Shown here piece by piece: positions 6,233-56,921 of a stretch of DNA of 64,000 nucleotides (the first letter of the stretch is position 1; every line of letters begins with the position of its first letter). Source of the stretch: Deltaproteobacteria bacterium (GTDB lineage: Bacteria > UBA10199 > SPLOWO2-01-44-7); NCBI GenBank assembly GCA_016203765.1, contig JACQMB010000145.1:1124-65123 (forward strand), read 5' to 3'. The position numbers and the translations under genes were made by a program. The notes under the pieces are model-generated. The model saw only the letters and a program-made list of their open reading frames with translations. It ran no database searches and was not told the origin of the DNA.

Positions 6233-6233
6233 T

Positions 6234-8039: not shown

Positions 8040-10049
8040 ATGGAGACCCATTGTTTTGTTGAACGACTTTCCCTGTTCCATTGGTTCTTTCAAGTCTTTC
8101 CATTCGCGTTAAAAGCAAGATTCAAAACCTTGTTTATTTTTGACGCCAAACCTTTTGCCTTGGATGTCGCGGAGAAAATGGGGACCTATTTTGGAATCAA
8201 AGTGGAAAAGCTGCAATTTCGCCTGGTGGATATTAGAGATGAGAATGGGATGCTCATCCGGCTTAGAATTCCCTTTCGGGATTTGAGGGACCTTGAAAAT
8301 GATTTTTTCCCCCATAGTCCTTCCCTGTTGGAGGGAAGAGTGAATGGAAACCGGTTGTGTTCCTATTTGCGAAAAGAAGTGATCTCGCCGGAAATTGTTT
8401 CCGGAGGCTCCCTGTCCCGAACACTTTTTTTGGTTCATGTTTGCCGCTGGAAAACAAAAGGGAAATGTTTTTTGTTCACCGGTTATCCGGTCTATTCAGA
8501 GGCATTAAAAAGGTACGCTTTAAAATACCAAGTTGAACTTTTTTCCCTCTGGTCGCCGTTTCGCATTCAATGGAAAAGGAACGCGGTTTTAAAATATTGG
8601 TACCATCTTTTTTTCAACTGGGTGTGGCGGATTAAATATCGGGTTGGGCCCTTTCTCAAAAGGGCTTCAGCCGCTTCAGGAAAAGATCCAAAGATCGCCA
8701 TCGATTATTATAACCTGTTGAATATAAGCCAGCCGGAAAAATATTCCGATTTTTCCTTCTACCAGCAGTCTGAAATCAAGGGGAGCGATATACTGGCCTT
8801 TCTCTATACGGCGGCGGATCCTCTGGATGAAGAGAGGCTGAGAGTTTTTGAAAAGCATCGGATGGAGGTTTTGCCCCTTCATTTTCGGGCAACCAAGGTT
8901 GCCAGCCATCCCCCCTGGATTCCAACTTGGAAGGCCATGTTGAGAGGCTCCCCCCCTGACTCGCTGGCCAGGCAGTTCCCCGAGGTGAAAAATTTGCGAG
9001 CGCTCTTTTCCTCTTATCAGTGGCTTTACACCTATTGGCGGCAACTTTTTCAGGAAACCAATGCCAAAATATATCTTTCCTGGCACAAATATAATGGGGG
9101 CCATATGGCCATTGCCGATGCAATTCAGGAAGCAGGCGGTGTCATGGGCATTTATCAGCGGGCCCTGGATGTTACCCCTTTTAGCGAATGTCGGTTGGAT
9201 GTTGACTTTGCCTTTGGGTATTCCAAAATAATGGCCGATCTGGAAAAGGAACAGATGTCGAGGATTCCCTATTTTATCGTAACAGGTTATTTGGGAGATC
9301 ATCGGTTTGCTTTGTTGCGGAATTGCGCTTCAAAGAAGAGAGAAGAAATTTTACAACGTGGCACAAAAAGGATCATTGCTTTTACCGATGAAAATTCCGC
9401 AGTCGATGACCGGTGGCACACCGGAAACCGGTTTATGCGGGAAAACTATGATTTTTTGTTGGAAAAATTACTGCAAAATCCCTGGCTGGGCTTAATTATC
9501 AAGCCCAAAGTTCCTTCGACGTTGCGATTTCGGCTGGGGCCCCTTGCGGCAACATTGAAAAGAGCGGAGGCAACGGGACGTTGTTTGGTCTATGAGGAGG
9601 GATCTTCCTTCGGTTCTTGTCCTCCTGCCCTTGCCGCCCTTTCGGCCGATGTTGCCATTCATGGACATTTGTGTGCCCCCACTGCCCCTTTTGAATGTGC
9701 CTTGGCCGGTGTGCCAACTTTGATGCTCGATAGAGAAGGTTTTCCGGTGAGCCCATTGTATGATTTGGGTGTCGGAAAAGTTGTTTTTAAAAGTTGGGAA
9801 CATTTGTGGGAGACATGTCTTGAGCATTGGCAAAACCATCAGGGAATTCAAGGATTTGGAGACTGGTCACCCATGCTGGACCATTTTGATCCGTTTCGAG
9901 ACGGCAAGGCCTCCGAAAGGATGGGCATCTTTTTGAAATGGATGCTTGAAGATTTTAAGGCCGGGTGTAATCGAGAGGCGGTGATGGCCAATGCCGCGGA
10001 ACGTTATTGCAAACAATGGGGACAGGATAAAGTGATGGCGATTCATTAA
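8040..10049 (+). CDS. Hypothetical large protein, possible GT-B-like glycosyltransferase
   Basis: This is a 669-aa ORF (ATG 8040, two nt after the neuB-like stop; the TTG at 8031 is the ORF-track start). I recognise no family motif. The C-terminal half has alternating beta/alpha-like segments (KRIIAFTDENS ... GLIIKPKVPS ... GVPTLMLDREG) resembling the proteins at 14930 and 60256. Confidence 0.55.
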   Translation: METHCFVERLSLFHWFFQVFPFALKARFKTLFIFDAKPFALDVAEKMGTYFGIKVEKLQFRLVDIRDENGMLIRLRIPFRDLRDLENDFFPHSPSLLEGRVNGNRLCSYLRKEVISPEIVSGGSLSRTLFLVHVCRWKTKGKCFLFTGYPVYSEALKRYALKYQVELFSLWSPFRIQWKRNAVLKYWYHLFFNWVWRIKYRVGPFLKRASAASGKDPKIAIDYYNLLNISQPEKYSDFSFYQQSEIKGSDILAFLYTAADPLDEERLRVFEKHRMEVLPLHFRATKVASHPPWIPTWKAMLRGSPPDSLARQFPEVKNLRALFSSYQWLYTYWRQLFQETNAKIYLSWHKYNGGHMAIADAIQEAGGVMGIYQRALDVTPFSECRLDVDFAFGYSKIMADLEKEQMSRIPYFIVTGYLGDHRFALLRNCASKKREEILQRGTKRIIAFTDENSAVDDRWHTGNRFMRENYDFLLEKLLQNPWLGLIIKPKVPSTLRFRLGPLAATLKRAEATGRCLVYEEGSSFGSCPPALAALSADVAIHGHLCAPTAPFECALAGVPTLMLDREGFPVSPLYDLGVGKVVFKSWEHLWETCLEHWQNHQGIQGFGDWSPMLDHFDPFRDGKASERMGIFLKWMLEDFKAGCNREAVMANAAERYCKQWGQDKVMAIH

Positions 10050-10052
10050 TAT

Positions 10053-11123
10053 ATGTATACCCGAACGGAAACATTTTGTATTTCAAAAAACGCCACAACT
10101 CAGGAGGCCATTGCCAAGATGAATGAGGGACGGCTCGGCATTGTGTTGGTGGTGGACGAGGACCGGCGGTTGATTGGAACCATTACCGATGGGGATATTC
10201 GGCGGGCGGTACTTGCCAAATTCCCCCTCTCCCATCTTGTTACGGCCTTGCTGGAGCAAAAGACCGGCACCGAATATGCCAAACCGCTTTATGCTTTGGC
10301 CGGACAAACAAAAAGCGAATATCTAAAAATTTTGAGACAAAATGCCCTTTCACATCTTCCAATTATCAATGGAGAAAAACAGGTGGTGGCCCTTCTGACC
10401 TCGGATGAATTTATGGTTGATTCCCTTGCCTCCATCGATGCCGTGGTGATGGCCGGGGGGAGAGGAATCAGGCTCATGCCTTTGACGGGGGATATTCCCA
10501 AACCGATGCTTCCGGTCGGCGAGAAACCGTTGTTGGAAATTATCATCCATAAGCTTAGAACCGCTGGCATTCAAAAAATAAATGTCACAACACACCACAA
10601 ACCGGAAAAGATCAAAGAATATTTCGGCGACGGCCGGGATTTCGGCATTGATTTGAATTATGTTTCCGAGGAACGTCCGTTGGGGACGGCCGGGGCTCTG
10701 GGGCTTTTGGAAAACATTCAGAAGACCACGTTGGTCATCAATGGTGATATTTTAACCGATGTCGATTTTAAGGCGATGTTTCAATTTCACCGGGAGCATA
10801 ACGCCGATTTGACGGTTGCCGTTCGCGTCTGCGAACTGGAGGTTCCTTTTGGGGTGGTTGAATGTCAGGGGGCTCAGGTGAAGGCGATCCAGGAAAAACC
10901 CAAAGTGAGTTTGATGGTCAACGCGGGCATTTATTTATTGGAACCACACGTTTATTCTTATATCCCCGCTGGCGAGCAATACCACATGACCGACCTGATT
11001 CAGCATCTGATTTCCAAAAAAATCAATGTCATCAGCTTTCCCATCCACGAATATTGGATTGATATCGGGGCCCATGCTGAATACGAAAAAGCCCAAAAAG
11101 AGATCGAGCGGTTTAATTTCTAA
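10053..11123 (+). CDS. CBS-domain sugar-phosphate nucleotidyltransferase (PtmE-like)
   Basis: It has tandem CBS segments (GIVLVVDEDRRLIGTITDGDIRRAV; LPIINGEKQVVALLTSDEF) followed by an NTP-transferase signature (VVMAGGRGIRLMPLTGDIPKPMLPVGEKPLLE). Confidence 0.85.
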   Translation: MYTRTETFCISKNATTQEAIAKMNEGRLGIVLVVDEDRRLIGTITDGDIRRAVLAKFPLSHLVTALLEQKTGTEYAKPLYALAGQTKSEYLKILRQNALSHLPIINGEKQVVALLTSDEFMVDSLASIDAVVMAGGRGIRLMPLTGDIPKPMLPVGEKPLLEIIIHKLRTAGIQKINVTTHHKPEKIKEYFGDGRDFGIDLNYVSEERPLGTAGALGLLENIQKTTLVINGDILTDVDFKAMFQFHREHNADLTVAVRVCELEVPFGVVECQGAQVKAIQEKPKVSLMVNAGIYLLEPHVYSYIPAGEQYHMTDLIQHLISKKINVISFPIHEYWIDIGAHAEYEKAQKEIERFNF

Positions 11124-11126
11124 TTT

Positions 11127-12290
11127 ATGATATCCCAAAAGATTTTGTTGTGTGAACCGTATCTTTCCGGCAGGGAATGGAAGTATGTTAAGGAGTGCCT
11201 CGATTCGGGGTGGATTGCCACTTCGGGTTCCTTCCTTGGCCGCTTTGAAAAAGAGGTGGCCCAATGCGTCGGCTCCGCCCATGCGGTGGGGGTGGCCACC
11301 GGCACGGCGGCCTTGCACCTGGCGTTATTGGCGGCGGGGGTTCAGCCGGAAGAGGAGGTTTTGGTCCCCACCATCACTTTTATTGCTCCAGTGAATGCCA
11401 TCCGCTACGCCGGGGCCCATCCGGTTTTGATGGATGTGGACCCCCTAAACTGGCAATTGGATGTGGGGAAGGTGGAGCGATTTTTGCGGGAGGCCTGTTC
11501 TTTTCATGATGGAATTGTAACAAACAAGAATACCCATCGGCGTGTCAAAGCCATTTTGGCCGTCCATCTTCTGGGCCTATGCTGCCCCATGGATCGTTTG
11601 GTTCCTCTGGCCAAAGAGTTTCAGCTGAAACTCATCGAGGATGCGGCGGAAGGGCTGGGCGTTCGTTATCGGGGCAGGCATGTGGGGACCTTTGGCGATA
11701 TCGGCACGTTGAGTTTTAACGGGAACAAACTGGTGAGCGCCGGATCGGGCGGAATGGTCCTGACGCAAAAAAGGGATTTGGCTGAAAGGGTACGCTATTT
11801 GGCGACCCAGGCGAAGGATAATCCGGATGAATTTTTTCACGGGGCTGTTGGTTTTAATTACCGCCTGACCAATCTTCACGCCGCGGTTGGTTTGGCCCAG
11901 ATGGAGGAGCTGGAGGAAAGAATTTCCAAGAAGCGCCGAATCGCCGCCTTTTACGAGAAAAGATTGGGGGAAATTCCGGGAGTATCTCTCATGCCCCAAA
12001 TTGCCCACTGTGAGCCGACCTATTGGCTTTATACCATTTTGCTTGCCAAAGGAGAAAGGCGAAAGGAAGTTTTGAAGGCTTTGCATGCGGCCGGCATTAT
12101 GGCCCGGCCTCTCTTTCATCCGATCCATGGCCTCCCCCCTTATCAAGGGACCCAGACTTTTTGCATTGAGCATGCGGAGTCCATTTATGCAAGGGCGGTT
12201 TGTCTTCCTTCCAGTTTGGGTTTGGATCAAGCAGCCCTGGAGGCAGTTGTTGCCTGTTTGGAAAAAGCGTTAATACCATGTCGATATTAA
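11127..12290 (+). CDS. DegT/DnrJ/EryC1/StrS family sugar aminotransferase (PseC/LegC/PglE-like)
   Basis: Motifs are SGWIATSGSFLGRFEKEVA, GVATGTAALHLAL and the PLP-lysine region SFNGNKLVSAGSGG. Confidence 0.9.
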   Translation: MISQKILLCEPYLSGREWKYVKECLDSGWIATSGSFLGRFEKEVAQCVGSAHAVGVATGTAALHLALLAAGVQPEEEVLVPTITFIAPVNAIRYAGAHPVLMDVDPLNWQLDVGKVERFLREACSFHDGIVTNKNTHRRVKAILAVHLLGLCCPMDRLVPLAKEFQLKLIEDAAEGLGVRYRGRHVGTFGDIGTLSFNGNKLVSAGSGGMVLTQKRDLAERVRYLATQAKDNPDEFFHGAVGFNYRLTNLHAAVGLAQMEELEERISKKRRIAAFYEKRLGEIPGVSLMPQIAHCEPTYWLYTILLAKGERRKEVLKALHAAGIMARPLFHPIHGLPPYQGTQTFCIEHAESIYARAVCLPSSLGLDQAALEAVVACLEKALIPCRY

Positions 12291-12928
12291 CTCAAACTAA
12301 AATTTTCTGTGTTATCTTGGGGGGCGGCGGTCATGCCCGCGTTGTGGTTGACTGTTTGAAAAGCTTGGGTGCGGCTCATCCTTGCGCGGTTCTCGATCAA
12401 GATCGCTCCCTTTGGGGGAAGGAGGTTTTGGGTGTTCCAATCCGTGGAGGACTCGAACTTCTGCCCAAATTGAAAGCAGAGGGGGCAACCTATTTTGTGC
12501 CGGCTGTCGGAGGGGTGGGGGATAACAACCCCCGCCGACGCATTTTTGATGCTGGTTTACAACACGGTTTGACGGCACTGACGCTTATCCACCCCTCGGC
12601 AACGGTTTCGCCCCATGCCCAGATCGGCCAAGGGACGGTCATTTTTGCGGGTGCCATTATCAATGCGGGGGTGATCATCGGCGATAATTGCATCATCAAC
12701 ACCGGCGCCATTATCGATCACGATTGCCGGATCGGGGATCATGTCCATATTGCGCCAGGCGCTGTTCTTTCCGGGGAAGTTTGTGTGGCACGGAGCGCCC
12801 ATCTCGGGACCGGAGCGAGCGTTATACAGGGCATTCATATCGGGGAGGAGGCTATCGTGGGGGCCGGCGGTGTCGTGGTCCGTAATATCTCTCCAAGGTC
12901 TGTTGTAAAGGGAGTCCCCGCGAAGTGA
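12278..12928 (+). CDS. Hexapeptide-repeat sugar N-acetyltransferase (PglD/NeuD family)
   Basis: I used the internal ATG at 12278, which overlaps the upstream stop region. It has the NeuD-type N-domain ILGGGGHARVVVDCL and left-handed beta-helix repeats IGDNCIINTGAIIDHDCRIGDHVHIAPGAVLSGEV. Confidence 0.85.
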   Translation: MSILTQTKIFCVILGGGGHARVVVDCLKSLGAAHPCAVLDQDRSLWGKEVLGVPIRGGLELLPKLKAEGATYFVPAVGGVGDNNPRRRIFDAGLQHGLTALTLIHPSATVSPHAQIGQGTVIFAGAIINAGVIIGDNCIINTGAIIDHDCRIGDHVHIAPGAVLSGEVCVARSAHLGTGASVIQGIHIGEEAIVGAGGVVVRNISPRSVVKGVPAK

Positions 12929-16432: not shown

Positions 16433-17430
16433 GATGCCTCGTTTTTGGCTGCGGGTATATGGGGAAAATCCGCGCGGCGGTGTTGAAAAATCATCCGGAC
16501 GTCACCCAGGTAAAAATTTACGATCCCTATGTGAATCCGGACCGTGAACCCATGGCGCCGGACCTCCTGGTCCCTTCGGAAATCCCGTGGAAAGATTTTG
16601 ACGCGGTTTTTGTCTGTACCCCCAACAACGTCAGCGCCAAACTGGCGATCGAGGGGCTTAAAAATTGCGGGCATGTCTTTTGTGAGAAACCTCCGGCCCG
16701 GAATTACGAGGAGCTGTGCGCGGTGAGGGAGGCCGCCCGGGCGCGTCCGGATCATACTTTGGTTTTCGGTTTTAACCACCGTTACCACCCGCTGGTTCAG
16801 GCGGCCAAAGACCTGGTGGGCGAGGGGGGGCTTGGCGAGGTCCTCTATCTCCGGGGGACCTACGGCAAATCGGGGGGAAAAAATTACCGTCAAAGCTGGC
16901 GCAACCAAAAGGAAATTTCCGGAGGGGGGATACTGCTGGATCAGGGCATTCATATGCTCGACCTCTTTCAATATTTTCTGGGCCCGCTGAAGCTGGTGAA
17001 CAGTCTGTTGCAAGATTCTTTTTGGAAATGCGGCGTGGAAGACAATGTCTTTGTTTTGTTGCGGTCGGCCAGGGGCGCCCCCGTTTTTCTCCATTCTTCC
17101 GCCACGCTGTGGAAACACACTTTTACCTTTGAAATCGGGTGTGAAAAGGGTTATCTCAAGGCCAACGGACTTCTCTCGCAAACCGGGAGCTATGGCCGCG
17201 AACAACTCGTAATCGGCCGAAGGCAGTTTGAGGATGAGGCTTTGGCCCTTGGCAATCCCCGGGAAGAGATCGTCTATTTCGACCGTGACGATTCCTGGCG
17301 ATTGGAGGTCAACGAATTTTTGTCCGCCGTCAAGGAAAAGAGAAAGGCCACGCACGGGACTTTGGAAGAAGCCCTGCAAGTGATGGCCTTGATCCGGGAT
17401 ATCTATGCAATCGATTCAAACCTGCTTTAA
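16429..17430 (+). CDS. Gfo/Idh/MocA family oxidoreductase
   Basis: It starts with an ATGA overlap. Motifs are MRCLVFGCGYMGKIRA (Rossmann) and VFCEKPPA (EKP motif). The 356-aa antisense ORF 16309-17379 is a shadow of this gene. Confidence 0.85.
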   Translation: MRCLVFGCGYMGKIRAAVLKNHPDVTQVKIYDPYVNPDREPMAPDLLVPSEIPWKDFDAVFVCTPNNVSAKLAIEGLKNCGHVFCEKPPARNYEELCAVREAARARPDHTLVFGFNHRYHPLVQAAKDLVGEGGLGEVLYLRGTYGKSGGKNYRQSWRNQKEISGGGILLDQGIHMLDLFQYFLGPLKLVNSLLQDSFWKCGVEDNVFVLLRSARGAPVFLHSSATLWKHTFTFEIGCEKGYLKANGLLSQTGSYGREQLVIGRRQFEDEALALGNPREEIVYFDRDDSWRLEVNEFLSAVKEKRKATHGTLEEALQVMALIRDIYAIDSNLL

Positions 17431-18361
17431 TTTTGATTTGTCGAAAGTCAAACCACTCGAGGAAGTGCTGAAATACCGGACTTTTTGCCTGGAGGCGGTC
17501 CGTCAATCCTGCCGGGGGGGGACGATACGGCGAAACCATTCTCCGGTCAGCGGGGCCCGGTTGCTTTCCTGGGGAACCGTGGACGGTTTGGAATACGGAA
17601 TTTGCCCGAAAACGGGGAGTCTTTTTCTGACGGAGATCCCTGCTCCCGCCGCGTGGGCTTCTCTGCTCGATAAGGTCAACCGGTACCGTAATGAGCAGGC
17701 CTTCGACGTTCATTTAAAACAGTCTCGTTTAACCAGCGTTTATGAACCCAAAAAGGCTTGGATTGAAGACACGCTCCGGTGGCATCACCTGGAGAGACCC
17801 AAGGTGCTTGAGGTGACGACCCCCCCCAGTGAGTTGACGGCCCTCTTGCAAACCAGTCCCCTGGTGGAGGAGGTTGTCGTCTGGAATGAGACGAACCCCC
17901 GCCCGGAAGGGCTTTGGCCGGAAGCGGCGGACGCGGCCATTCTTTTGGAATCGCTTGATCGCTCGGGGGATCCGGCGGCATTTTTAAAGCGCGTCCATGA
18001 AAGTTTGAAACCCGGCGGGCTCCTTTTTTTGACGGCCCTGCTCGCCTCCGGTTTCGACATGAAGGTGTTGGGGACAAAAAATCTCTATCTGTGCCCCCCC
18101 GACCGGACGAATTGCTTTAGCCTGAACGGATTAACGCAACTGCTGGCTCAATCCGGTTTTACCTTTATTGAGGTGAGTACTCCCGGCATCCTGGATGTGG
18201 AGATTGTCCGGGCCCATTGCTTGCAGGATCCGTCCATTCGCCTCTCTCCGTTTGAAACAACGTTGCTCGATGCCGATCCGGAAAAACTGTCGGCATTGCA
18301 AATATTTTTACAGCAGAGCAATGTAAGCTCGTTTGCCCGCGTGGTGGCCAAAAAGAACTAA
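17405..18361 (+). CDS. Putative SAM-dependent methyltransferase-like protein
   Basis: The methyltransferase-like post-I/II region AAILLESLDRSGDPAAFLKRVHESLKPGGLLFLT is present. Motif I is degenerate (VLEVTTPPSE), so the function is uncertain. Confidence 0.55.
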   Translation: MQSIQTCFNFDLSKVKPLEEVLKYRTFCLEAVRQSCRGGTIRRNHSPVSGARLLSWGTVDGLEYGICPKTGSLFLTEIPAPAAWASLLDKVNRYRNEQAFDVHLKQSRLTSVYEPKKAWIEDTLRWHHLERPKVLEVTTPPSELTALLQTSPLVEEVVVWNETNPRPEGLWPEAADAAILLESLDRSGDPAAFLKRVHESLKPGGLLFLTALLASGFDMKVLGTKNLYLCPPDRTNCFSLNGLTQLLAQSGFTFIEVSTPGILDVEIVRAHCLQDPSIRLSPFETTLLDADPEKLSALQIFLQQSNVSSFARVVAKKN

Positions 18362-18891
18362 TGGTTATTTGGGTGACAGGATTGTCCGGAGCGGGGAAAA
18401 CGACCCTTTGTCGCGCCCTCTATGACAGATTGAAAACACATATTCCTCAGCTGGTCTGGCTCGACGGGGATGTTGTGCGAAAGGCTTTTGGAAATGATTT
18501 GGGATATTCCGAAGAGGAAAGGCAGACACAATTGAAGCGTTTGCAAAATCTCGCCAAGGTTCTTTCCCATCAGGGGCTGGTTGTTTTGGTTGCCGTTTTG
18601 TATTCTCATCCCGACTTTTTAAAATGGAATCGGCAGAATTTTCCGGAGTATTTTGAAATCTATTTATCCGTGGCTCTCGATGTGTTGCGGCAAAGAGACG
18701 AGAAAGGACTTTACAACGGGTCCGTGAGAAACGTTGTCGGGCTTGATATCCCTTGGCACCCCCCCCAAACCCCGGCTTTGAAAATAAATGTTGATTATAA
18801 AATACCGCCCGAACGATTAGCGCTGGATGTTATCTCTGCTATTCCAAAACTGGCAGAATGCCTGGAAATGCCGAGGAGAAAAAGAATATGA
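18361..18891 (+). CDS. Adenylyl-sulfate (APS) kinase family protein
   Basis: It has the P-loop [11 protein letters not shown] and [21 protein letters not shown] (the LDGD motif). The usual FISP-type segment is replaced by LYSHP. It is translationally coupled to both neighbours (TAATG at the 5' end, ATGA at the 3' end). Confidence 0.75.
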
Positions 18892-20495
18892 AAAAAACGA
18901 CGCAGTTGCGGCAATTATTATTTTCAGAAAGTTTGGAATTTTTGTGCGAGGCCCACAATGGGTTGAGCGCTAAGATTGTCGAAGAAGCCGGTTTTAAAGG
19001 GATCTGGGGAAGCGGATTATCTCTCTCCGCGGCGATGGCCGTTCGAGATAATAATGAGGCCAGTTGGACGCAGATTTTGGAGACGGTGGAGTTTATGTCC
19101 GATGCCACATCCATTCCTGTCTTGCTGGATGGAGATACCGGATATGGGAATTTTAATAATGTCCGCCGCCTTGTTCAAAAACTCGAGCAAAGAGGCATCG
19201 GCGGTGTTTGCATCGAAGATAAGCTATTTCCTAAAACCAATAGTTTTCTGAGGGGGGAAAAACAGCCGCTGGCGACTCTGGAAGAATTTACGGGCAAAAT
19301 CAAAGCAGCCAAAGACTCTCAGCGAGACAGTGATTTTTGCCTGGTGGCTCGGACCGAGGCCTTTATTGCCGGGTGGGGGTTATTCGAGGCCTTGCGCCGC
19401 GCCGATGCCTATCATCGTGCCGGGGCGGATGCCATTTTGATTCATAGTAAACTTTCCAAGCCGGATGAAGTCTTGGCATTTAAGAAAGAGTGGGGTCGCC
19501 GTTCTCCGGTGGTGATTGTTCCTACGACCTATTACGCAACACCGATGGAGGTTTTCCAAGAAGCGGGTTTTAGTACCGTTATCTGGGCCAACATGATTTT
19601 GCGCAGTGCGATCACGGCCATGAAAGCCGTTGCCTCACAACTGAAAAGGGAAAATTCTCTTTTGAGTGTGGAGGATAAAATTGTGCCCGTCAAAGAAGTG
19701 TTTCGTCTCCAAGGGGATCAGGAGTTGGAAGAGGCGGAAAGACTTTATTTGCCAAGCGTCGCCTCGGAAACCAAGGCCGTTATTTTAGCCGCTTCTCGCG
19801 GGGAAGTCTTAGATGCGTTGACCCAAGAAAGACCGAAGGCCATGATCCCCGTTGGGGGAGAGCCCTTGTTATTTCGGCAGATCCGAACGCTGCAAGAGGC
19901 GGGCGTGAAAGACGTGACCGTGGTGCGGGGTTATTGCAAAGAGGTGATTGACGCCCCTGGCCTTCGCTACGTGGATAATGAGATTTATGCCTCATCCAAG
20001 GAACTGGTTTCCCTATGGAAGGGAATCCAAAATTTATCGGGGCCCGCATTTATCGCCTATGGGGACATCCTTTATAAGAAGTATGTTCCAACTTTGCTGT
20101 TGCAGGAGGAAGAGGATTTTGTCATCGCCGTCGATTCTGAATGGGAGAGGAGCGGCAATCGAAAAAGATATGCTGATTATGTCTCCTGCGACGTCCCTTA
20201 CCGGCGGACATTATTGGATCACCCCGTTTATCTGACGAGGATGGATGCAGATTTAGTGCCGGCAACCATTTGTGGAGAATGGATTGGTCTTCTGCGGGCT
20301 TCAGCGGAGGGGATAAAAATTATTCAAAAAATATTAGCCGAACTGTCTCAACAAGAAGCATTTTCAAAGATGCGTATGGCGCATCTGTTCAATGCATTGA
20401 GACAAAAAGGTTATAAGGCCAGGGTTCATTATATTCGAGGCCATTGGTTGGATGTCGATGACCTTACGGATCTCGTTACGGCACACGCCTTTTAG
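18888..20495 (+). CDS. aepX: Phosphoenolpyruvate mutase fused to a C-terminal nucleotidyltransferase domain
   Basis: The ATG at 18888 overlaps the upstream stop (ATGA). The N-terminal domain has LDGDTGYG and the PEP-mutase-discriminating [10 protein letters not shown] (EDK-X5-NS, nt 19215-19244). The C-terminal roughly 240 aa are NTP-transferase-like ([32 protein letters not shown]). Confidence 0.85.
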
Positions 20496-20503
20496 AAAAT
20501 CGC

Positions 20504-21667
20504 ATGATTCAAGCCAAAGACTTTATTGAACCGGCATTGGAGCGAGGATATCGCTTCTGGTCAGGCGTCCCTTGTTCTTTTTTAACGCCGTTTATTAACT
20601 ATGTCATCCAGAATAAAGAGCTCCGGTATGTGGGGGCCTCGAGCGAAGGGGAAGCCGTCGCGATAGCGATCGGTAGTTACCTGGCCGGCAATAAATCGGT
20701 GGCCATTTGCCAAAACTCCGGTCTAGGGAATATGGTCAATCCGTTGACAAGCCTCAATTATCCTTTTCGGATTCCTTTGCTTTTGATTGTGACGCACCGA
20801 GGAGCCCCTGGCATCCAAGATGAACCCCAGCATGTCTTGATGGGTCAAATTACGGAAAAATTGTTAGAAACGATGCGCATCCCTTACCTCCCCTTTCCTG
20901 AGGAAGGTCGGGATGTGCAAAGGACTCTGGCAGAAGTGGAAAATTATATTGAAAAAGAGAATCTGCCGTTCGCTTTGATTATGAAAAAGGATGCTGTCAC
21001 TTCCTATCCTTTAGAACAAAAAATCACGTTTCACCATTTTCCCGTCTCCCCTGTTGAGGGGAAATTTTATTGGTCCGGTGATTCCCGAATGCGCCGCTTG
21101 GAAGCGATTCAGATAATTAAGGAAACGGCATCGCAACGAGCCCTTCTGATAGCTACAACCGGAAAAACCGGTAGAGAACTGTTCGCATTGGGTCATCAAT
21201 CCAATCAAATTTATATCGTGGGCGGGATGGGATGTGCTGCCGGAATCGGGTTGGGATTGAGTCTCGGACAGCCTTCCAAAAAGGTTTTGGTTTTGGATGG
21301 AGACGGGGCGGTCTTAATGAAGATGGGCACTTTGGCAACGATAGGGCACTATCAGCCAAAAAATTTGATTCATATTGTTTTGGACAATGAGGCTCATGAA
21401 TCAACGGGGGCACAGTTTACGGTGTCGGGGAGCACAGATATCGCCTCTGTCGCCTCTGCCTGCCGCTACCGAAAGCTTTTTCGCTGCGATCAGGCAAAAG
21501 ACTTAAAAAGGTATTTGGATTTGGCCATGCAATCCGAGGGCCCTGTGATGATTCATGTCAAAATCGCCGTCGGATCGGACCCCAAGTTGGGCCGTCCCAC
21601 GTTGACGCCCCATGAAGTCAAAGATCAGTTTGTCCGCCGAATGAATAAAGAAAGGAGCGATTTATGA
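20504..21667 (+). CDS. aepY: Phosphonopyruvate decarboxylase (ThDP-dependent)
   Basis: Motifs are FWSGVPCSFLTPF, GEAVAIAIGSYLAG and the ThDP motif LDGDGAVLMKMGTLATIG...IVLDNEAHESTG. It lies immediately downstream of the PEP mutase. Confidence 0.85.
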   Translation: MIQAKDFIEPALERGYRFWSGVPCSFLTPFINYVIQNKELRYVGASSEGEAVAIAIGSYLAGNKSVAICQNSGLGNMVNPLTSLNYPFRIPLLLIVTHRGAPGIQDEPQHVLMGQITEKLLETMRIPYLPFPEEGRDVQRTLAEVENYIEKENLPFALIMKKDAVTSYPLEQKITFHHFPVSPVEGKFYWSGDSRMRRLEAIQIIKETASQRALLIATTGKTGRELFALGHQSNQIYIVGGMGCAAGIGLGLSLGQPSKKVLVLDGDGAVLMKMGTLATIGHYQPKNLIHIVLDNEAHESTGAQFTVSGSTDIASVASACRYRKLFRCDQAKDLKRYLDLAMQSEGPVMIHVKIAVGSDPKLGRPTLTPHEVKDQFVRRMNKERSDL

Positions 21668-23004
21668 TAACAAAAGACCCCACCTTTTTGAAACGCCAGG
21701 GGGCCAATTTTTTATCTCTGATCAATGATTTAAAAAGAAACCGAAAAGCGGCCGCCCAAGATTTGCAGGTTTCCCTTGAGACAATAGAGAAGATCATCGC
21801 CGGGGAAAGCGATATTCCTCCGGGATTGATTCAGAGAGCTACGGAAGTTTGGCCGGTGAATCGGCGCGATTTCATGATTATGGAAGATGATTGTCCGGAG
21901 GGGGTTTTGGTGATGCGGGGAGAGGCGTCTGAAAAAAGTTCCCGCATTTTTACCCGGGGGGGAGCGGATTATTATGAATATCGGGATACGGCCATGTCGA
22001 AAGTGGCCCCCTTTCGTCCTGAATGGATTTTGGAACTTTGCACGGTGGAGGACAATGACCCGAAAAATTCCAGTTTGCGGTGGAATAACGGCCACTTTAT
22101 GCATCAGTTTACGATGTTTGTGGGCCCGGTCAATTTTTATTATATTGAAGAGAACCAAAAAAAGGTGATGGTCGCAAACACGGGGGATTCCATGTACATT
22201 ACCCCCTTTGTCCCGCACACTTTTGCGACGAGACAAAGGCAAAAAGGTCTCATTCTGGCTTTGACCTATGGAAACAAATTGCTCGGAGACGTCCAACAGG
22301 AAATGTCGAGCCTGGGTGGAGATATTCCGGGCCAATTTCTTTTGGAAACACGAAGCCGAGACGCCTATTTTGCCTCTCTGTTACAATTGCAGATGGCCGC
22401 TTTAAGCCTCTCTGCGGAAGATTTGATTGTGCAGACCGGTTTGCCTGCCGATCGCGTTCACCGGTGGATAAAGGGTGAAGCCTTTCCAACTCCTGAAGAA
22501 TACGGGAGGTTGGCTGATCGTTTGAATGTGAATGTTTATGATTTAATGCCTCCCGACGCTTTTGATCCCGGAGTCATTGTTAGCTATTTGTCGCATTCCA
22601 AGCCTAGGCGGTATTTTAATTGCCAAATCAGAGAACTCGCTTCCATTCGCTATCTCCCTTACTCCAAGGCCCTTCTTCTGGATGTTTTGGAAAAGGCAGA
22701 GACGTTTCCCTTCAAAGTGCCCCTGCATCAATACTGCTATAATTTTGGAGATGTGTCGGTGACGCTCCGATGGGATTGGAAAGGACAGACCAGAGAAGTG
22801 GAAGTGGGTCCCAATGATTCGGTTTATGTGAAACCGTTTGTGCCTCACTCCTTTTCGCCTTGTGCGGCCAAGCCAGCTTCTTTGTTGAGTTTGCGCATCG
22901 GCGGAAAAGGCACTGGAGAGCCCCAAAGAGAACTGTCCCATATTGGAAAAAAGAATATCCAACGCATCTATCAAGAGTATTCACTTTGGTATAAGGAAGA
23001 ATAA
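21664..23004 (+). CDS. mpnS: MpnS/HEPD-family two-cupin non-haem iron oxygenase, residue pattern favouring methylphosphonate synthase
   Basis: It starts with an ATGA overlap and is 446 aa. It has two HTH-like plus cupin repeats (ANTGDSMYITPFVPHTFATR and VGPNDSVYVKPFVPHSFSP). The first cupin carries N141, H144, Q148, F158, I179 and H185. It sits between ppd and an iron ADH. The family call is stronger than the MpnS-versus-HEPD call. Confidence 0.6.
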   Translation: MITKDPTFLKRQGANFLSLINDLKRNRKAAAQDLQVSLETIEKIIAGESDIPPGLIQRATEVWPVNRRDFMIMEDDCPEGVLVMRGEASEKSSRIFTRGGADYYEYRDTAMSKVAPFRPEWILELCTVEDNDPKNSSLRWNNGHFMHQFTMFVGPVNFYYIEENQKKVMVANTGDSMYITPFVPHTFATRQRQKGLILALTYGNKLLGDVQQEMSSLGGDIPGQFLLETRSRDAYFASLLQLQMAALSLSAEDLIVQTGLPADRVHRWIKGEAFPTPEEYGRLADRLNVNVYDLMPPDAFDPGVIVSYLSHSKPRRYFNCQIRELASIRYLPYSKALLLDVLEKAETFPFKVPLHQYCYNFGDVSVTLRWDWKGQTREVEVGPNDSVYVKPFVPHSFSPCAAKPASLLSLRIGGKGTGEPQRELSHIGKKNIQRIYQEYSLWYKEE

Positions 23005-23007
23005 GCG

Positions 23008-23721
23008 ATGAAAGCCATTTTGCTCACCGCGGGACAAGGAAGCCGTTTGCTGCCCTATACGCAATCGATGCCAAAACATTTGCTCCCCCTCGGTTCCACC
23101 ACCATTATTCATCGAACAATCAAAATATTAAGGGATATCGGGATTCAAGACATTGCAATGGTCGTAGGTTATTTAAAGGAAAAATTTTATGAGGCCTTTC
23201 CTAAAGATATTCAATTTTATACCAATGAAGCTTATCCAGTCACCGACCAGGCCGCGAGTTTGGCGAAGGCAGTGGAGAAATTGGAAGATGATTTTTTGGT
23301 CATTGCAGGGGATTTATTTTGTCCCCGAAAGGTTTTTGTTCAGATATTGGAAAAACCCCATCCCATCTGTCTAGCCATTGAAAAAAGGAAAGGGCCATTT
23401 AATGACGTGACGGAAAAGGTCTGCACGAGAGGGGAGTCCATTTTTAAGATCGGGAAATTGAACGTTTTGAACGGAGAAGCCAATGGAGAATTTTTGGGAT
23501 TGACAAAGGTGAGAAAGGAAAAGGCGTCGTTTTTTCTCCGACATCTTAAAGCCGCGCTTTTAGAAAACCCCAGGAGCGCCATCATTCACGTCCATCAAAA
23601 AATAATCGATGCCGGATGTCCTCTTCCTTATATCCACTGCGGAGATTCCTGGTGTGAAATTGATGAGCCCGCCACCTGGAAAAAGGCAAAAGAGATTTTT
23701 CAAAAAACCCCTGATTACTGA
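23008..23721 (+). CDS. Nucleotidyltransferase (sugar-phosphate or phosphonate cytidylyltransferase-like)
   Basis: It has a canonical N-terminal signature: MKAILLTAGQGSRLLPYTQSMPKHLLPLG. Confidence 0.8.
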   Translation: MKAILLTAGQGSRLLPYTQSMPKHLLPLGSTTIIHRTIKILRDIGIQDIAMVVGYLKEKFYEAFPKDIQFYTNEAYPVTDQAASLAKAVEKLEDDFLVIAGDLFCPRKVFVQILEKPHPICLAIEKRKGPFNDVTEKVCTRGESIFKIGKLNVLNGEANGEFLGLTKVRKEKASFFLRHLKAALLENPRSAIIHVHQKIIDAGCPLPYIHCGDSWCEIDEPATWKKAKEIFQKTPDY

Positions 23722-23779
23722 GGAGCATGATTTAGATCATGTTGACTCTTGTTTGCATTAGTTCTAGCGGTGACCGGTT

Positions 23780-25270
23780 ATGGGAAACGTGCCTGCATGC
23801 CGGGTGCCCGTGACCCCTTCATTAGAAGCATTGTTAAATCCGGAACTCTTCAAAAAGGAACCGCTTTTCACCTCTCCTTTAAAACCGCCGCAAAAAGGGG
23901 AGAAGGTTCATCTCCTTTCAGAAGAGGACGTCAATGCCATTCGAAAACTAAGAGGGGCGGTGGTCGATCTCCATCCCGGAATGGGGGGCGTTACCCCGGA
24001 CAAGCTGATTGCCATGATCAAGAGCGGCATCCGATTGACTTCTATCGATTATATGATGACCCGGGGTTGTAATTTCGAATGCACTTGGTGTTTCGCGGGT
24101 TCGGGTCCTTTGCAAAAAGAATATCTTCCCTTTCAAAAACTAGCATCTATTACGCAAGAAGCGGCAAAGTTGGGCGTTACCCTTTTTATTTTAACGGGCG
24201 GAGAACCCCTTGTTTATCGGGACCCGGCGTTAGGGCAGCAGAAAGGCATTGGGGATCATTTTTTTAGAGTCGTGAAGATGATTCGAGATACTTACAGCCA
24301 ACAAGGCCTCTCCGCGAAAATATTGACCTTCGACGATGTCGCATTGATTTCTCCCGAGATTGCAAAGCGGTTTGCGGAATACGAAATAGGTCTCTGTACA
24401 AAAGGCGACACCCTTGCCCCCGAGCTCCAAGATTATAAAGTCAATCAGGTTGGGGCTTTTGACAAGATGCAAAGAGGTTATAAGAATCTTGTGGATGCCG
24501 GTTATGGAAGGGACCCAAGACTAAGAGTCGTCGTGAATTCTGTTTTGGATCACACCACCTTCGATGGCATGTTGGATTTGCATCTATGGGTTATGGAGAA
24601 TGGTTTTGATCATTCCATTGTCCCCGTTCATTATTGCGGCAATGCTGAAAATGAAGATCAAGAGGCAGGGGTTCACTCTCCTCATGTCAAGGTTTTGTAC
24701 GATGTTCTTTCTGAGATTGACAGGAAGCGCTTTGGCATTGAGTGGAAACCCTGGTCCGCCTTTCCTTACAATAAAACTTGCAACCGTAACCGCTCTGGGA
24801 TTCATATCCGGGCCAATGGCGATGTGACGGCTTGTTCCGAATCGCCGGGGCCTGAGCTAACTGGGCGTTACACTTTCGGTAATATTTTCGCCCCTGGTTT
24901 TTCTCTCGAAAAAGTTGTGAAGGATGAAAAGTTAGAAGCCTATCGAGAGGAGTTTAAGAGAGGATATGGGACCTTTGTTTGTTCTCCGGAGGTGTGTGAT
25001 CTGTACGCCCATGACCTTTGTTTGGGCGGGTGCGCCACCCGCTCCGCTTATTCCAAAATAGATATTCAAACGGGCCTCGTCGTTAAAAATGAAAATTTTC
25101 ACAATTACAGTGAGAAGAGAGAAGACCCCTTATGTCCTGCTTGGACTTTGTTGGCTATGCGCCAGGGGATTTTGAGAGAAGGTTTATTAGACAATATCCG
25201 GCATCGGATCATTTCCAGAAGTACAAGACTAAAAGATTTGGAAGGAATGGAACATTCCATTCCTTGTTAG
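23780..25270 (+). CDS. Radical SAM protein with C-terminal SPASM/twitch-like Cys cluster
   Basis: The CxxxCxxC motif is at residues 97-104 (RGCNFECTWCFAG). GGEPL is present. The C-terminal Cys-rich region is CSESPG...CSPEVCDLYAHDLCLGGCATRS. The start is uncertain because about 90 aa precede the cluster. Confidence 0.8.
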   Translation: MGNVPACRVPVTPSLEALLNPELFKKEPLFTSPLKPPQKGEKVHLLSEEDVNAIRKLRGAVVDLHPGMGGVTPDKLIAMIKSGIRLTSIDYMMTRGCNFECTWCFAGSGPLQKEYLPFQKLASITQEAAKLGVTLFILTGGEPLVYRDPALGQQKGIGDHFFRVVKMIRDTYSQQGLSAKILTFDDVALISPEIAKRFAEYEIGLCTKGDTLAPELQDYKVNQVGAFDKMQRGYKNLVDAGYGRDPRLRVVVNSVLDHTTFDGMLDLHLWVMENGFDHSIVPVHYCGNAENEDQEAGVHSPHVKVLYDVLSEIDRKRFGIEWKPWSAFPYNKTCNRNRSGIHIRANGDVTACSESPGPELTGRYTFGNIFAPGFSLEKVVKDEKLEAYREEFKRGYGTFVCSPEVCDLYAHDLCLGGCATRSAYSKIDIQTGLVVKNENFHNYSEKREDPLCPAWTLLAMRQGILREGLLDNIRHRIISRSTRLKDLEGMEHSIPC

Positions 25271-26425
25271 ATGTCCTCCCCTTTCTTTAATCCTGTTCAG
25301 GTTGTTTTTGCAGAAAGGCTTTCGGAAGGCTTGCCTCCTTTGCTGAAAGGAAGACGTGCGTCTGTTTTGACGACGAAAGGAATGAAGCAAAGAGAGGGAT
25401 TCAGACTTTTAGAAGAAGCCCTGGGTGGAAAAAGTTGCGGGGTTTGCACCGATGTTGTCCCGAATCCGGATGTGGAATCCATTCTTTCTTGCACGCGGCA
25501 GATTTCCTCCTTCAAACCGGAGATACTCATTGCCTTGGGAGGCGGAAGTGTTTTGGATGCAGCGAAGGTGGTCGCCATTTTGCTTGCGGCCCCTTTTTCT
25601 AAGACTGCCCTGCAAGAGATTTTGGATGGCAACATTTCTTTGCCCAAGGAAATGGATGCCTTGCCGGTGATTGCTATCCCTACCACGTCGGGGACCGGTT
25701 CGGAGGTAACTTCGTGGAGCGCCGTTTGGAATAAAAAGACAGGCCAGAAATATTCTCTGTCGCATCAGTGTATGTATCCCGAGGCCGCGCTTCTGGTTCC
25801 TGCCCTCACGGCAACCCTTTCTTATGAAAACACGCTGTTTCCCGCTTTGGACGCCCTTTCCCAAAGCATGGAAACCGTTTGGAACAGGAATGCCAATCCC
25901 GTTTCCGATGCGCTGGCCATGCAGGCAATGACCTGTCTGTTTGGAATTTTAAAGAAGGACTTTCGCCGTTCTTTTGAAGCTTTGTCCGTGCGGAAGGAGT
26001 TGCAAAAAGCCAGTCTGTTAACGGGCCTTGCCTTTAGCAACACGGAAACGGCGATCGCCCATTCCCTTTCCTATCCTTTGACAGGCAAAAAGGGGGTTCC
26101 GCACGGTTTGGCTTGTAGTTTTACCCTCCCGGAAATTTTGCGTTTTAATTATCAAGGGGCTCCGGAACGCGTAACCCTTGTTTTAAAAGCCCTAGGTTTT
26201 TCTCATGTTGAAGAAGCGATAGAAGCTTTGTATATGGTTTTTGAAGACTTAGGTATTTGGCAGTATCTTAGAAATTACATTATGGACCCTTGTGAACTGC
26301 AAGAGTTGCAACACCTTTTGGTCTCTGCTCAGCGCGCCCGGAATAATATCGTCCCCTTTTCTCAAGAAGCGGCTGTAGAGTTATTGACCGCCGCTTTTGG
26401 CCGCATCGTGGGCCGAAGATGTTAA
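25271..26425 (+). CDS. Iron-containing (group III) alcohol dehydrogenase, candidate phosphonoacetaldehyde reductase
   Basis: Motifs are ALGGGSVLDAAKVVA, IPTTSGTGSE and a His-rich metal site (AHSLSYPLTGKKGVPHGLA). The functional call comes from its position in the phosphonate sub-cluster. Confidence 0.75.
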   Translation: MSSPFFNPVQVVFAERLSEGLPPLLKGRRASVLTTKGMKQREGFRLLEEALGGKSCGVCTDVVPNPDVESILSCTRQISSFKPEILIALGGGSVLDAAKVVAILLAAPFSKTALQEILDGNISLPKEMDALPVIAIPTTSGTGSEVTSWSAVWNKKTGQKYSLSHQCMYPEAALLVPALTATLSYENTLFPALDALSQSMETVWNRNANPVSDALAMQAMTCLFGILKKDFRRSFEALSVRKELQKASLLTGLAFSNTETAIAHSLSYPLTGKKGVPHGLACSFTLPEILRFNYQGAPERVTLVLKALGFSHVEEAIEALYMVFEDLGIWQYLRNYIMDPCELQELQHLLVSAQRARNNIVPFSQEAAVELLTAAFGRIVGRRC

Positions 26426-27189
26426 AAGATCATCTCCGACATCGCAGAATAGTGTTCGGCGCTTGGACCTCTCTGGCCCATCCCCAAATTACCGAGATGT
26501 TCGCCTCCGTCATGAAGCCCGATTTCATCGGGATCGACATGGAGCATTCCACCATCAGCCAGGGGGAAGCGCAAAGGATTATCGCCGCCGGCCAGGCCTG
26601 CGGGGTTCCCGTTTTGCCGCGGCTGGCCTCCCATGATATCGAAGCGATGCGCCGCCTCTGCGATTCGGGGGCAGACGGCCTGATCGTTCCCATGGTCAAT
26701 ACGCCCGAGGAACTGGAACGGGTGGTGAAGGGGTGCAAATATCCCCCCGTGGGCCAAAGGGGCTACGGGGTGGCGCGGGCCCAGGGGCACGGTGCCCGTT
26801 TTGATGAATATATTTCCGCGTGGAATGCAAAATCGGTTCTGATCATTCAGATTGAATCCATTCAAGCCGTGGAAAATATCGACCGGCTGTTGGACAATGA
26901 GCAGGTGGATGGAGTGATGATCGGCCCCTACGACATCTCCGGCTCGCTGGGAATTCCGGGAAAGCTGATCGACCCCAAAGTTTTGCAGGCCGGCGAGCGG
27001 GTCCTTGCGGCGTGCGCGCGCCGGGGAAAGGCTTGCGGCACGCAAATTACGGAACTCCCCGACGAGAAAAAAATTAAGGAGGCCATCGATCGCGGTTATA
27101 CCGTCATTGTCCTGGCCTCCGATGTCTTTTTGATGTGGCGATGGTCGGAACAAATGAGAGGGTTGATCGCTCGTGTACGGCAGTCTTGA
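26419..27189 (+). CDS. HpcH/HpaI family class II (pyruvate-type) aldolase
   Basis: Motifs are FGAWTSLAHPQITEMFA, DFIGIDMEHS, LIIQIESIQAVENID and MIGPYDISGSLG. Confidence 0.85.
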   Translation: MLKDHLRHRRIVFGAWTSLAHPQITEMFASVMKPDFIGIDMEHSTISQGEAQRIIAAGQACGVPVLPRLASHDIEAMRRLCDSGADGLIVPMVNTPEELERVVKGCKYPPVGQRGYGVARAQGHGARFDEYISAWNAKSVLIIQIESIQAVENIDRLLDNEQVDGVMIGPYDISGSLGIPGKLIDPKVLQAGERVLAACARRGKACGTQITELPDEKKIKEAIDRGYTVIVLASDVFLMWRWSEQMRGLIARVRQS

Positions 27190-56821: not shown

Positions 56822-56921
56822 TAGTCAAGCGGATGCTAAGAGAAATATGCGGACATCAGGAATGGCATGCTGTGTCCTAAATGCTTGTAATTTTCTTCCA
56901 TTATTGTATAGATTACTCCCG
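56822..56921. promoter_or_regulatory. AT-rich divergent intergenic region between two head-to-head B12-radical SAM genes, with a candidate sigma70-like promoter
   Basis: This is the only sizeable non-coding gap at a strand switch. On the plus strand, TTGTAA (56885-56890), a 16-nt spacer and TATAGA (56907-56912) place a putative start site within about 10 nt of the ATG at 56922, which would give a near-leaderless transcript. This is pattern-matching only. Confidence 0.3.

Follow-up and report, generated by a model that had tools for sequence, protein, structure and literature searches.

What does a kinase of the adenosine 5'-phosphosulfate (APS) kinase family do when its gene is coupled to genes for phosphonate biosynthesis? 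The question is raised by a 64-kb stretch of contig JACQMB010000145.1 from a Deltaproteobacteria bacterium (analyzed over its full length and hereafter called the window), in which a 176-aa kinase is encoded on the + strand at positions 18361–18891. A model that had seen only the letters of this DNA (the sequence-only reading) proposed that the kinase makes a phosphonate donor resembling 3'-phosphoadenosine 5'-phosphosulfate (PAPS), to be used by a sulfotransferase-fold protein encoded further downstream (ST1). Based on comparative genomics, we lean, if only slightly, towards the view that it is a nucleotide 3'-kinase acting on a nucleotide-methylphosphonate donor during the decoration of a glycan with methylphosphonate (MPn).

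For comparison, 165 related loci from genomes and metagenomes were used together with contigs of close homologues, and the genes neighboring the kinases were labeled by tblastn and Pfam (L-numbers denote comparison loci, P-numbers their kinases). Trees were built by neighbor joining (NJ) on ~165 columns, with bootstrap. The orthologue from a complete gene cluster of the O-methyl phosphoramidate (MeOPN) type in Arcobacteraceae (L075) was used as a proxy for Cj1415 of Campylobacter jejuni.

The kinase gene and its phosphonate cassette

The open reading frame (ATG start, TGA stop; G+C content at third codon positions (GC3) 0.475) encodes the APS-kinase fold that had been recognized from the letters alone, as residues 1–142 match the Pfam APS_kinase family (PF01583, E = 1.6e−32, cutoff 21 bits). 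Solved APS kinases were matched with E-values from 4e−26 for the best (PDB 7yq0) down to 1e−11, and both the P-loop GLSGAGKTT (residues 7–15) and an LDGD motif (residues 34–37) are present. The stop codon (18889–18891) shares the tetranucleotide ATGA with the start codon, at 18888, of a gene for phosphoenolpyruvate (PEP) mutase fused to a MobA/LicC-type nucleotidyltransferase (Ppm-NTP), and the overlap claimed by the sequence-only reading is therefore real. A GAGGAG segment lies upstream of this ATG, and the N-terminus that it gives is common to the orthologous fusions in L166 and L167. Translation probably does not begin at another in-frame ATG further upstream (18858). The 4-nt overlap also recurs in L166 and L167; membership of the kinase in the cassette, with translational coupling, is thus conserved in all three loci. 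On its other side, the start of the kinase gene overlaps the stop codon of a methyltransferase-like gene in the sequence TAATG.

The genes that follow the kinase, all on the + strand, encode a recognizable phosphonate pathway. Ppm-NTP (18888–20495; PEP_mutase E = 7e−59, NTP_transf_3 E = 1.3e−11) reaches 371 bits against the PEP mutase model TIGR02320 (cutoff 319), and phosphonopyruvate decarboxylase (Ppd, 20504–21667) reaches 423 bits against TIGR03297 (E = 6.9e−127, cutoff 312). The next gene encodes a 446-aa orthologue of methylphosphonate synthase (MpnS, 21664–23004) that matches MpnS of N. maritimus (PDB 6b9s, E = 3.9e−132) better than 2-hydroxyethylphosphonate dioxygenase (HEPD, PDB 6b9r, E = 1.7e−81). 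Its iron ligands H148/Q152/H190 are kept, as are F162 and I184, where HEPD has Tyr and Gly; Phe and Ile at these two positions are reportedly diagnostic against HEPD (Born et al. 2017). Residues of the MpnS type were found in every MpnS-like protein of the kinase-bearing cassettes compared.

The cassette continues with a stand-alone LicC/PntC-like nucleotidyltransferase (NTP2, 23008–23721; NTP_transf_3 E = 7.9e−14, PDB LicC 1jyk E = 5.4e−12, PntC 6pd1 E = 1.3e−9), whose PDB matches span both LicC/PntC and sugar-1-phosphate thymidylyltransferases and thus do not decide its nucleotide preference. After a radical SAM/SPASM protein (23780–25270; Radical_SAM E = 2.9e−11, SPASM E = 2.2e−4, GC3 0.475), whose gene is absent from the cassettes of L167 and L174, it ends with an Fe-dependent alcohol dehydrogenase (Fe-ADH, 25271–26425; E = 9.2e−37) that is likely a phosphonoacetaldehyde reductase making 2-hydroxyethylphosphonate (2-HEP). 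Because Ppm-NTP, Ppd and an MpnS orthologue are among the genes after the kinase, the phosphonate produced is most likely MPn, as far as can be predicted from the encoded proteins. The contig that carries this MpnS orthologue is labeled by NCBI as 'MAG: Deltaproteobacteria bacterium'; MPn synthesis has mostly been discussed for marine Thaumarchaeota and SAR11.

The absence of an ATP sulfurylase from the window, also claimed earlier, held up in two kinds of search. The sulfurylase and pyruvate kinase of related loci gave no tblastn match in the 64 kb, and Pfam scans of ~55 window open reading frames (≥ 150 aa) revealed no ATP-sulfurylase, PAPS_reduct, CysD or CysN-type GTPase.

The surroundings form one large surface-glycan locus, which includes NeuB, CMP-sugar synthetases, DegT/PglD-type enzymes, Wzy and a carbamoyltransferase, among others. 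The methyltransferase-like gene upstream of the kinase (17405–18361, + strand; Methyltransf_23 E = 1.2e−9) marks the boundary of the cassette. Four radical SAM proteins are encoded in this locus (23780–25270, 33861–34742, 55070–56821 and 56766–58985), two of them with SPASM, one with a weak, sub-threshold match to a B12-binding domain and one with the radical SAM domain only. Behind the MPn cassette lies a gene for an HpcH/HpaI-type aldolase, in the window (26419–27189) as well as in the syntenic loci L167 (8348–8569) and L174 (14393–15169). A scan of 14–33.5 kb for promoters and terminators gave counts within the expectation from shuffled sequence.

Relatives of the kinase and its substrate pocket

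Canonical APS kinases (including PDB 7yq0, 5cb6 and 8a8h) were separated with 100% NJ bootstrap from two further classes, A and B. The window kinase falls in class A (94% bootstrap), the sister of class B (73%), and the two classes share the motifs WNRxN, QG and VVGxD, which the canonical kinases lack. Against the canonical equivalog TIGR00455 the window kinase scores 126.5 bits, below the cutoff of 138.7, while it passes NCBIfam NF004041 (PRK05541) with 135 bits (cutoff 127). Scores against the latter model were highest for kinases in MeOPN contexts (183–228 bits; L075 228, L029 183), followed by 177 bits for the kinase of a phosphonate island (L059) and 142 bits for sulfurylase-linked kinases, and its name, 'adenylyl-sulfate kinase', probably does not suit many of the proteins that it labels.

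Class B (~83 loci) holds the precedent on which the sequence-only reading had relied. Cj1415 of the C. jejuni MeOPN pathway is reportedly a cytidine diphosphoramidate 3'-kinase (Taylor & Raushel 2018), and 3'-phospho-cytidine diphosphoramidate is given as an intermediate in PMC6429109; the precedent is thus on record. The neighbors of class-B kinases are a PPDK_N/PEP-utilizers protein, a GATase/Peptidase_C26 protein, a nucleotidyltransferase and methyltransferases, an architecture that corresponds to the Campylobacter MeOPN genes Cj1418, Cj1417 and Cj1416 and was verified by Pfam in L075. Cj1415 and the window kinase have in common the APS-kinase fold, the annotation as CysC, a glycan-decoration cluster, a LicC-type nucleotidyltransferase as neighbor and the absence of a sulfurylase; Cj1415-type kinases, as represented by the L075 proxy, also share with it the WNRxN/QG/VVGxD motifs and pass NF004041. 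The chemistry proposed for both is the same, namely 3'-phosphorylation of a conjugate in which a nucleoside monophosphate (NMP) carries a further group on its 5'-phosphate. They differ in that the window kinase belongs to class A, outside the MeOPN-context clade, and in the group to be activated, a phosphoramidate in MeOPN and, as proposed, a C–P phosphonate here. In addition, the glutamine kinase (PPDK_N + PEP-utilizers) and the GATase-type amidohydrolase of MeOPN clusters have no homologues in the window, where nucleotidyltransferases alone represent this set of partners.

MeOPN-type clusters (~83 loci, within L022–L165) were found far beyond Campylobacter, in Lachnospiraceae, Acidobacteriota, Nitrospina, Planctomycetes, Pseudomonas and Paenibacillus, and about half of them have a Sulfotransfer_3-like protein nearby. 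Within Acidobacteria/Bryobacterales, such clusters include L036, where APS_kinase is fused to the PPDK_N/PEP-utilizers (glutamine-kinase-like) protein (9947–12871).

Class A is dominated by another arrangement. In ~37 glycan loci drawn from many phyla, genes for a 360-aa ATP sulfurylase and a 474-aa pyruvate kinase come next after the kinase gene, with overlaps between genes (e.g., L002 10001–13034, L003, L004, L006–L011, L013–L019, L087, L088 and L168), and we found no published description of this module. The sulfurylase (PUA_2 + ATP-sulfurylase) keeps the QTRN…HRAH and GRDHAG motifs, the pyruvate kinase may serve in ATP regeneration or ADP removal, and sulfotransferase genes sometimes adjoin. 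These modules contain the closest sequence relatives of the window kinase (50–65% identity), which fall in the same clade and share ALY[AS]HP, Q57 and VVGxDIPW with it; they differ in what follows the kinase gene, which is a sulfurylase and pyruvate kinase there and Ppm-NTP in the window, L166 and L167.

Such kinship raises the alternative of an ordinary APS kinase, which would convert APS from a sulfurylase encoded elsewhere into PAPS, with ST1 sulfating the same glycan and the position in the operon reflecting co-regulation of two decorations. We regard it as unlikely, though as the most serious competitor. In its favor, both the name given to the protein and its model scores point to an adenylyl-sulfate kinase, and its nearest relatives reside in the sulfurylase modules, at times beside sulfotransferases. 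The lack of a sulfurylase in the 64 kb speaks against it, given that those close relatives bring their own.

The substrate pocket does not separate the two. When the APS contacts of CysC from Mycobacterium tuberculosis (PMC4373884) were mapped onto the window kinase, the phosphosulfate-binding R483 and R497 (R40 and R54) and the ribose contacts D480 (D37) and K562 (the lid Lys, K115) were kept, and the first adenine-stacking position, F492, was conservatively replaced by another aromatic residue (Y49). The P-loop (CysC K456) and LDGD (D478/D480) are likewise present, and the window kinase therefore resembles the canonical CysC/PAPSS kinase domain (TIGR00455; PDB 4bzq, 5cb6 and 2pey) in fold, nucleotide-binding motifs and these contacts. 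It departs from that domain, besides the scores and the tree split given above and the missing Sat/CysDN partner, in the second stacking Phe of the lid (F576, here V125), in the I523/S524 loop, where LYSHP replaces the canonical ISPY, and in the Asn of the ENIRR motif, which is Gln57. The LYSHP segment had been noticed from the letters alone and is indeed there; its interpretation as a sign of an altered pocket did not survive, as it is common to the ~37 relatives that abut an ATP sulfurylase. Since the same stacking and loop changes occur in these relatives, they do not by themselves exclude APS as the substrate. Neither LYSHP nor Gln57, the F-to-V change in the lid or a 4-residue lid deletion (present in some sulfurylase-linked class-A kinases, in P0005 and in L059) could be retained as a substrate marker, all being shared with sulfurylase-linked kinases. 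Position 49 was dismissed as a marker of purine or pyrimidine for a similar reason: it is His in most MeOPN-context kinases and in a second MPn clade and Tyr in sulfurylase-linked kinases, and Tyr is also found in MeOPN-context and class-B phosphonate-context kinases.

Two loci combine both kinds of neighbor around one kinase. In L142, a 4.1-kb contig, amidohydrolase and cytidylyltransferase genes lie upstream of a single kinase gene and those for sulfurylase and pyruvate kinase downstream of it, and in L102 the sulfurylase–pyruvate kinase pair has a glutamine-kinase homologue 6 kb away. Both hint at kinase promiscuity and would suit a broad-specificity 3'-kinase for APS and nucleotide-phosphonate alike, on which sulfation and phosphonylation would both depend, as would the near-identity of class-A pockets and, by chemical reasoning, the isosteric nature of methylphosphonate and sulfate anhydrides. 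With a single sulfotransferase-fold gene in the window, we consider such a double role very improbable here.

Phosphonate clusters with related kinases and the proposed partner ST1

The association of these kinases with phosphonate genes is not confined to the window. Within class A, the window kinase forms a subclade (A1, 91% bootstrap) with P0002 (L166, 81% identity) and P0003 (L167, 60%), all three coupled to Ppm-NTP; L167 presents the cassette in its compact form, in the order kinase, Ppm-NTP, Ppd, MpnS, NTP, Fe-ADH and ST1, followed by HpcH. In a second clade (A2), the context is known for six members (L012, L086, L089 and the loci of P0014, P0120 and P0091), each of which is preceded by NTP, MpnS and Fe-ADH and followed by an AP-superfamily 'sulfatase-like' protein; in the only A2 locus with a longer upstream flank (L171, that of P0120), the NTP gene is itself preceded by Ppm-NTP and Ppd. 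No ATP sulfurylase or sulfotransferase was found near the kinase in any of these six loci.

The 'sulfatase-like' gene of A2 directly follows the kinase gene (L169 10534–12180, L171 10576–12171, L172 4869–6518, L086 5297–6943) and often overlaps it. Its products are probably not formylglycine sulfatases, as the C/SxPxR motif is absent; with a conserved SNTQF segment and zero membrane segments, their predicted features recall soluble phospho(no)transferases or diesterases more than sulfatases. Distant relatives of these proteins are encoded beside sulfurylase modules (L003, L168), together with radical SAM/SPASM genes.

Class B contributes further cases. L144 has an Fe-ADH::APS_kinase fusion (5249–6934) in an MpnS cassette, after which come an ABC ATPase and a Sulfotransfer_3 protein; L059 has a four-gene island between dnaX and alaS (kinase, NTP+CT+Ppm, Fe-ADH, Ppd) without sulfation genes; L080 has the order rSAM, CT-Ppm, kinase, Ppd, CT; and the kinases of L131 and L041 also lie in phosphonate clusters. 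A single origin of the phosphonate-linked class-A kinases had to be rejected (0% bootstrap for A1+A2), and because A1 and A2 never form a clade, recruitment to phosphonate genes happened more than once. Over both classes together, at least four unrelated settings are known in which a kinase of this superclade is part of a phosphonate cluster. An ordinary APS kinase accounts poorly for their occurrence in clusters free of sulfotransferases and for the fusion of one of them to Fe-ADH.

Two of these loci bear on another alternative, in which the kinase would 3'-phosphorylate an earlier, cytidylylated intermediate (e.g., CMP-2-HEP) for tailoring by the radical SAM protein or methyltransferases, with a product that is not the final donor. 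The L059 island has the kinase, cytidylyltransferases, Ppm, Fe-ADH and Ppd, yet neither MpnS nor a transferase, and the fusion partner in L144 is the 2-HEP-forming enzyme. The two nucleotidyltransferase domains of the window cassette fit as well, and Fom1-type cytidylylation of 2-HEP before tailoring, cited in PMC6697681, offers a precedent. The co-variation of the kinase with ST1, a fold suited to 3'-phospho-nucleotide donors, counts against this alternative, which we judge improbable. We know of no tailoring that takes place on a 3'-phosphorylated CMP conjugate.

ST1 (30955–32148, + strand; GC3 0.533) was described as a sulfotransferase-fold protein by the sequence-only reading, and this was confirmed. 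Sulfotransfer_3 was matched with 32 bits (cutoff 27), and although a sequence search against PDB gave a marginal CurM match only, the AlphaFold (AF2) model (pLDDT 92.4, pTM 0.91) had as its top Foldseek matches TPST1/2, the ST domains of CurM and OLS, Stf9, Stf1 and 3-OST, all PAP-bound or PAPS-dependent sulfotransferases, with a probability of 1.00 for TPST, CurM ST and Stf9. The ST1-like family, one member of which matches Sulfotransfer_3 with E = 2e−13, keeps GRxGS (GR(V/S)GS) and RDPxxxxxS, presumably the 5'-phosphosulfate-binding (5'-PSB) and 3'-phosphate-binding motifs of sulfotransferases. Fold and PAPS-type motifs would both be expected if an ordinary APS kinase served ST1; the window would then be left without a recognizable MPn transferase, as no LicD, TagF or AP-type candidate was found in the Pfam scans of its open reading frames. 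In a count with a family HMM seeded from three phosphonate-linked ST proteins, 30 of 64 MeOPN-type loci without a sulfurylase had an ST1-like member no more than 8 kb from the kinase, compared with 4 of 24 sulfurylase-linked loci, a distribution that fits enzymes using 3'-phosphorylated nucleotide donors other than PAPS. Which group ST1 transfers cannot be read from its sequence.

The kinase and ST1 are also linked by a comparison of syntenic cassettes. In L167, an ST1 orthologue with 61% identity stands directly after Fe-ADH. L174 is syntenic with the window cassette (GFO, MT, Ppm-NTP, Ppd, MpnS, NTP, Fe-ADH, X, HpcH; MpnS 57% identical) and lacks both kinase and ST1: the methyltransferase homologue abuts Ppm-NTP directly, and X, a Glyphos_transf (TagF-like) protein, takes the position that ST1 holds in L167. 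The kinase and ST1 thus behave as a pair that belongs to the MPn cassette. Base composition agrees with this, as the genes from the kinase to Fe-ADH (18361–26425: kinase, Ppm-NTP, Ppd, MpnS, NTP2, radical SAM and Fe-ADH) have a GC3 of 0.46–0.52, and ST1, 4.5 kb further on, has 0.533 among genes of 0.64–0.65; all genes beside this block, such as the methyltransferase-like gene (0.630), or between it and ST1 have 0.61–0.69. This suggests that the low-GC3 genes were acquired as one cassette, which was later split by the block reaching from HpcH to 2-HADH. For an ordinary APS kinase, this co-variation with the MPn cassette, the shared GC3 and the joint replacement by a TagF-like transferase in L174 are all awkward.

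Proposed route, objections and meaning

The first part of the route has strong homology behind it: PEP would be converted to phosphonopyruvate by Ppm, to phosphonoacetaldehyde by Ppd, to 2-HEP by Fe-ADH and to methylphosphonate by MpnS. In the steps that we propose beyond this, the NTP domain fused to Ppm and/or NTP2 would make NMP-methylphosphonate, and the kinase would use ATP to phosphorylate its ribose 3'-OH, giving 3'-phospho-NMP-methylphosphonate, a PAPS-like donor. ST1 would then hold the 3'-phosphate as a handle and pass the methylphosphonyl group on to a hydroxyl of a sugar in the surface glycan, containing nonulosonic acid, whose genes surround its own. The base could be C or A, as no result favors CMP over AMP. 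AMP-methylphosphonate would be isosteric and isoelectronic with APS, so that, by this chemical reasoning, little change of the pocket would be needed, and it would fit the descent of the kinase from sulfurylase-linked relatives.

Weighing the two sides, the prior based on sequence favors an APS kinase and the context favors a role in the MPn pathway. The latter follows from the coupling to Ppm-NTP, the several recruitments, the Fe-ADH fusion and the sulfation-free island, and also from the joint loss of kinase and ST1 with their replacement by a TagF-like protein, the shared GC3 and the sulfurylase-free window. Of the earlier proposal that the kinase makes a phosphonate donor for ST1, the coupling and the kinship with a superclade of the Cj1415 type have thus stood, strengthened by the recurrence in phosphonate clusters and the co-travel with ST1; the pocket argument has fallen, the nesting in class A sits uneasily with the proposal, and CMP as the nucleotide found no support.

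Several observations weigh against a donor kinase for MPn. In the tree, the window kinase lies within a group of kinases encoded by genes that overlap one for an ATP sulfurylase that looks bona fide; it shares 60–65% identity with them, and proteins this similar usually have the same function. No residue in pocket or lid separates it from these relatives, which almost certainly use APS. A sulfotransferase-fold gene in the cluster is just what one would expect beside a supplier of PAPS, glycans often carry sulfate, and APS could come from a housekeeping or dissimilatory sulfurylase encoded elsewhere. The A1 subclade comprises only three loci, and the kinase-less syntenic control is a single one (L174). 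Furthermore, the mpnS cluster of N. maritimus has AP-superfamily proteins and no such kinase; the kinase is therefore not required for MPn attachment in general, and a route that depends on it would be a variant rather than the rule.

The published record touches on the association in passing. Rice et al. 2019 (PMC6697681) described the Ppm-NTP fusion type and CMP-2-aminoethylphosphonate, and the words kinase and sulfotransferase are absent from that paper. The PntC/LicC-LicD tailoring treated there resembles the window in the fusion of Ppm to NTP_transf_3, nucleotidyl activation and the cell-surface glycan context; there, LicD-like transferases act on the CMP conjugate itself, whereas in the window the kinase and a sulfotransferase-fold protein stand in for a transferase of the TagF/LicD type. 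Li & Horsman 2022 noted radical SAM and 'adenylsulfate kinase' genes flanking Campylobacter ppm-ppd cores, and Lockwood et al. 2022 listed genes for an arylsulfatase and an 'adenylylsulfate transferase' in the vicinity of mpnS and hepD, both papers without interpretation. In the literature searched, no paper joined Cj1415 with phosphonates, PEP mutase or phosphonate with adenylylsulfate kinase, or methylphosphonate synthase with sulfotransferase; the co-occurrence is known, and no mechanism has been proposed for it there.

With belief and doubt about evenly balanced, we extend the donor-kinase reading to the pair as a whole: the kinase and ST1 may form a phosphonyl-transfer system that uses 3'-phospho-nucleotide-methylphosphonate, in which case ST1 would be the first known phosphonyltransferase of its fold. 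More broadly, one kinase superclade would then supply three donors of PAPS logic, carrying sulfate, phosphoramidate and phosphonate, to transferases of the sulfotransferase fold or the AP superfamily.

MPn esters on polysaccharides have been proposed as the source of methane in oxic ocean water (Metcalf et al. 2012; Repeta et al. 2016), and to our knowledge the route by which MPn becomes attached to glycans has not been established. If the proposal is true, it would provide a testable route for the esterification of polysaccharides with MPn, and the seven-gene cassette of L167 is compact enough for testing the donor model directly. It would extend the activation logic of Campylobacter MeOPN to C–P compounds, add a new chemistry to the sulfotransferase fold and explain the 'adenylylsulfate kinase' genes seen beside ppm and mpnS genes (PMC8942020, PMC9381506), while thousands of 'adenylyl-sulfate kinase' annotations made by NF004041 would have to be flagged as probably misnamed.

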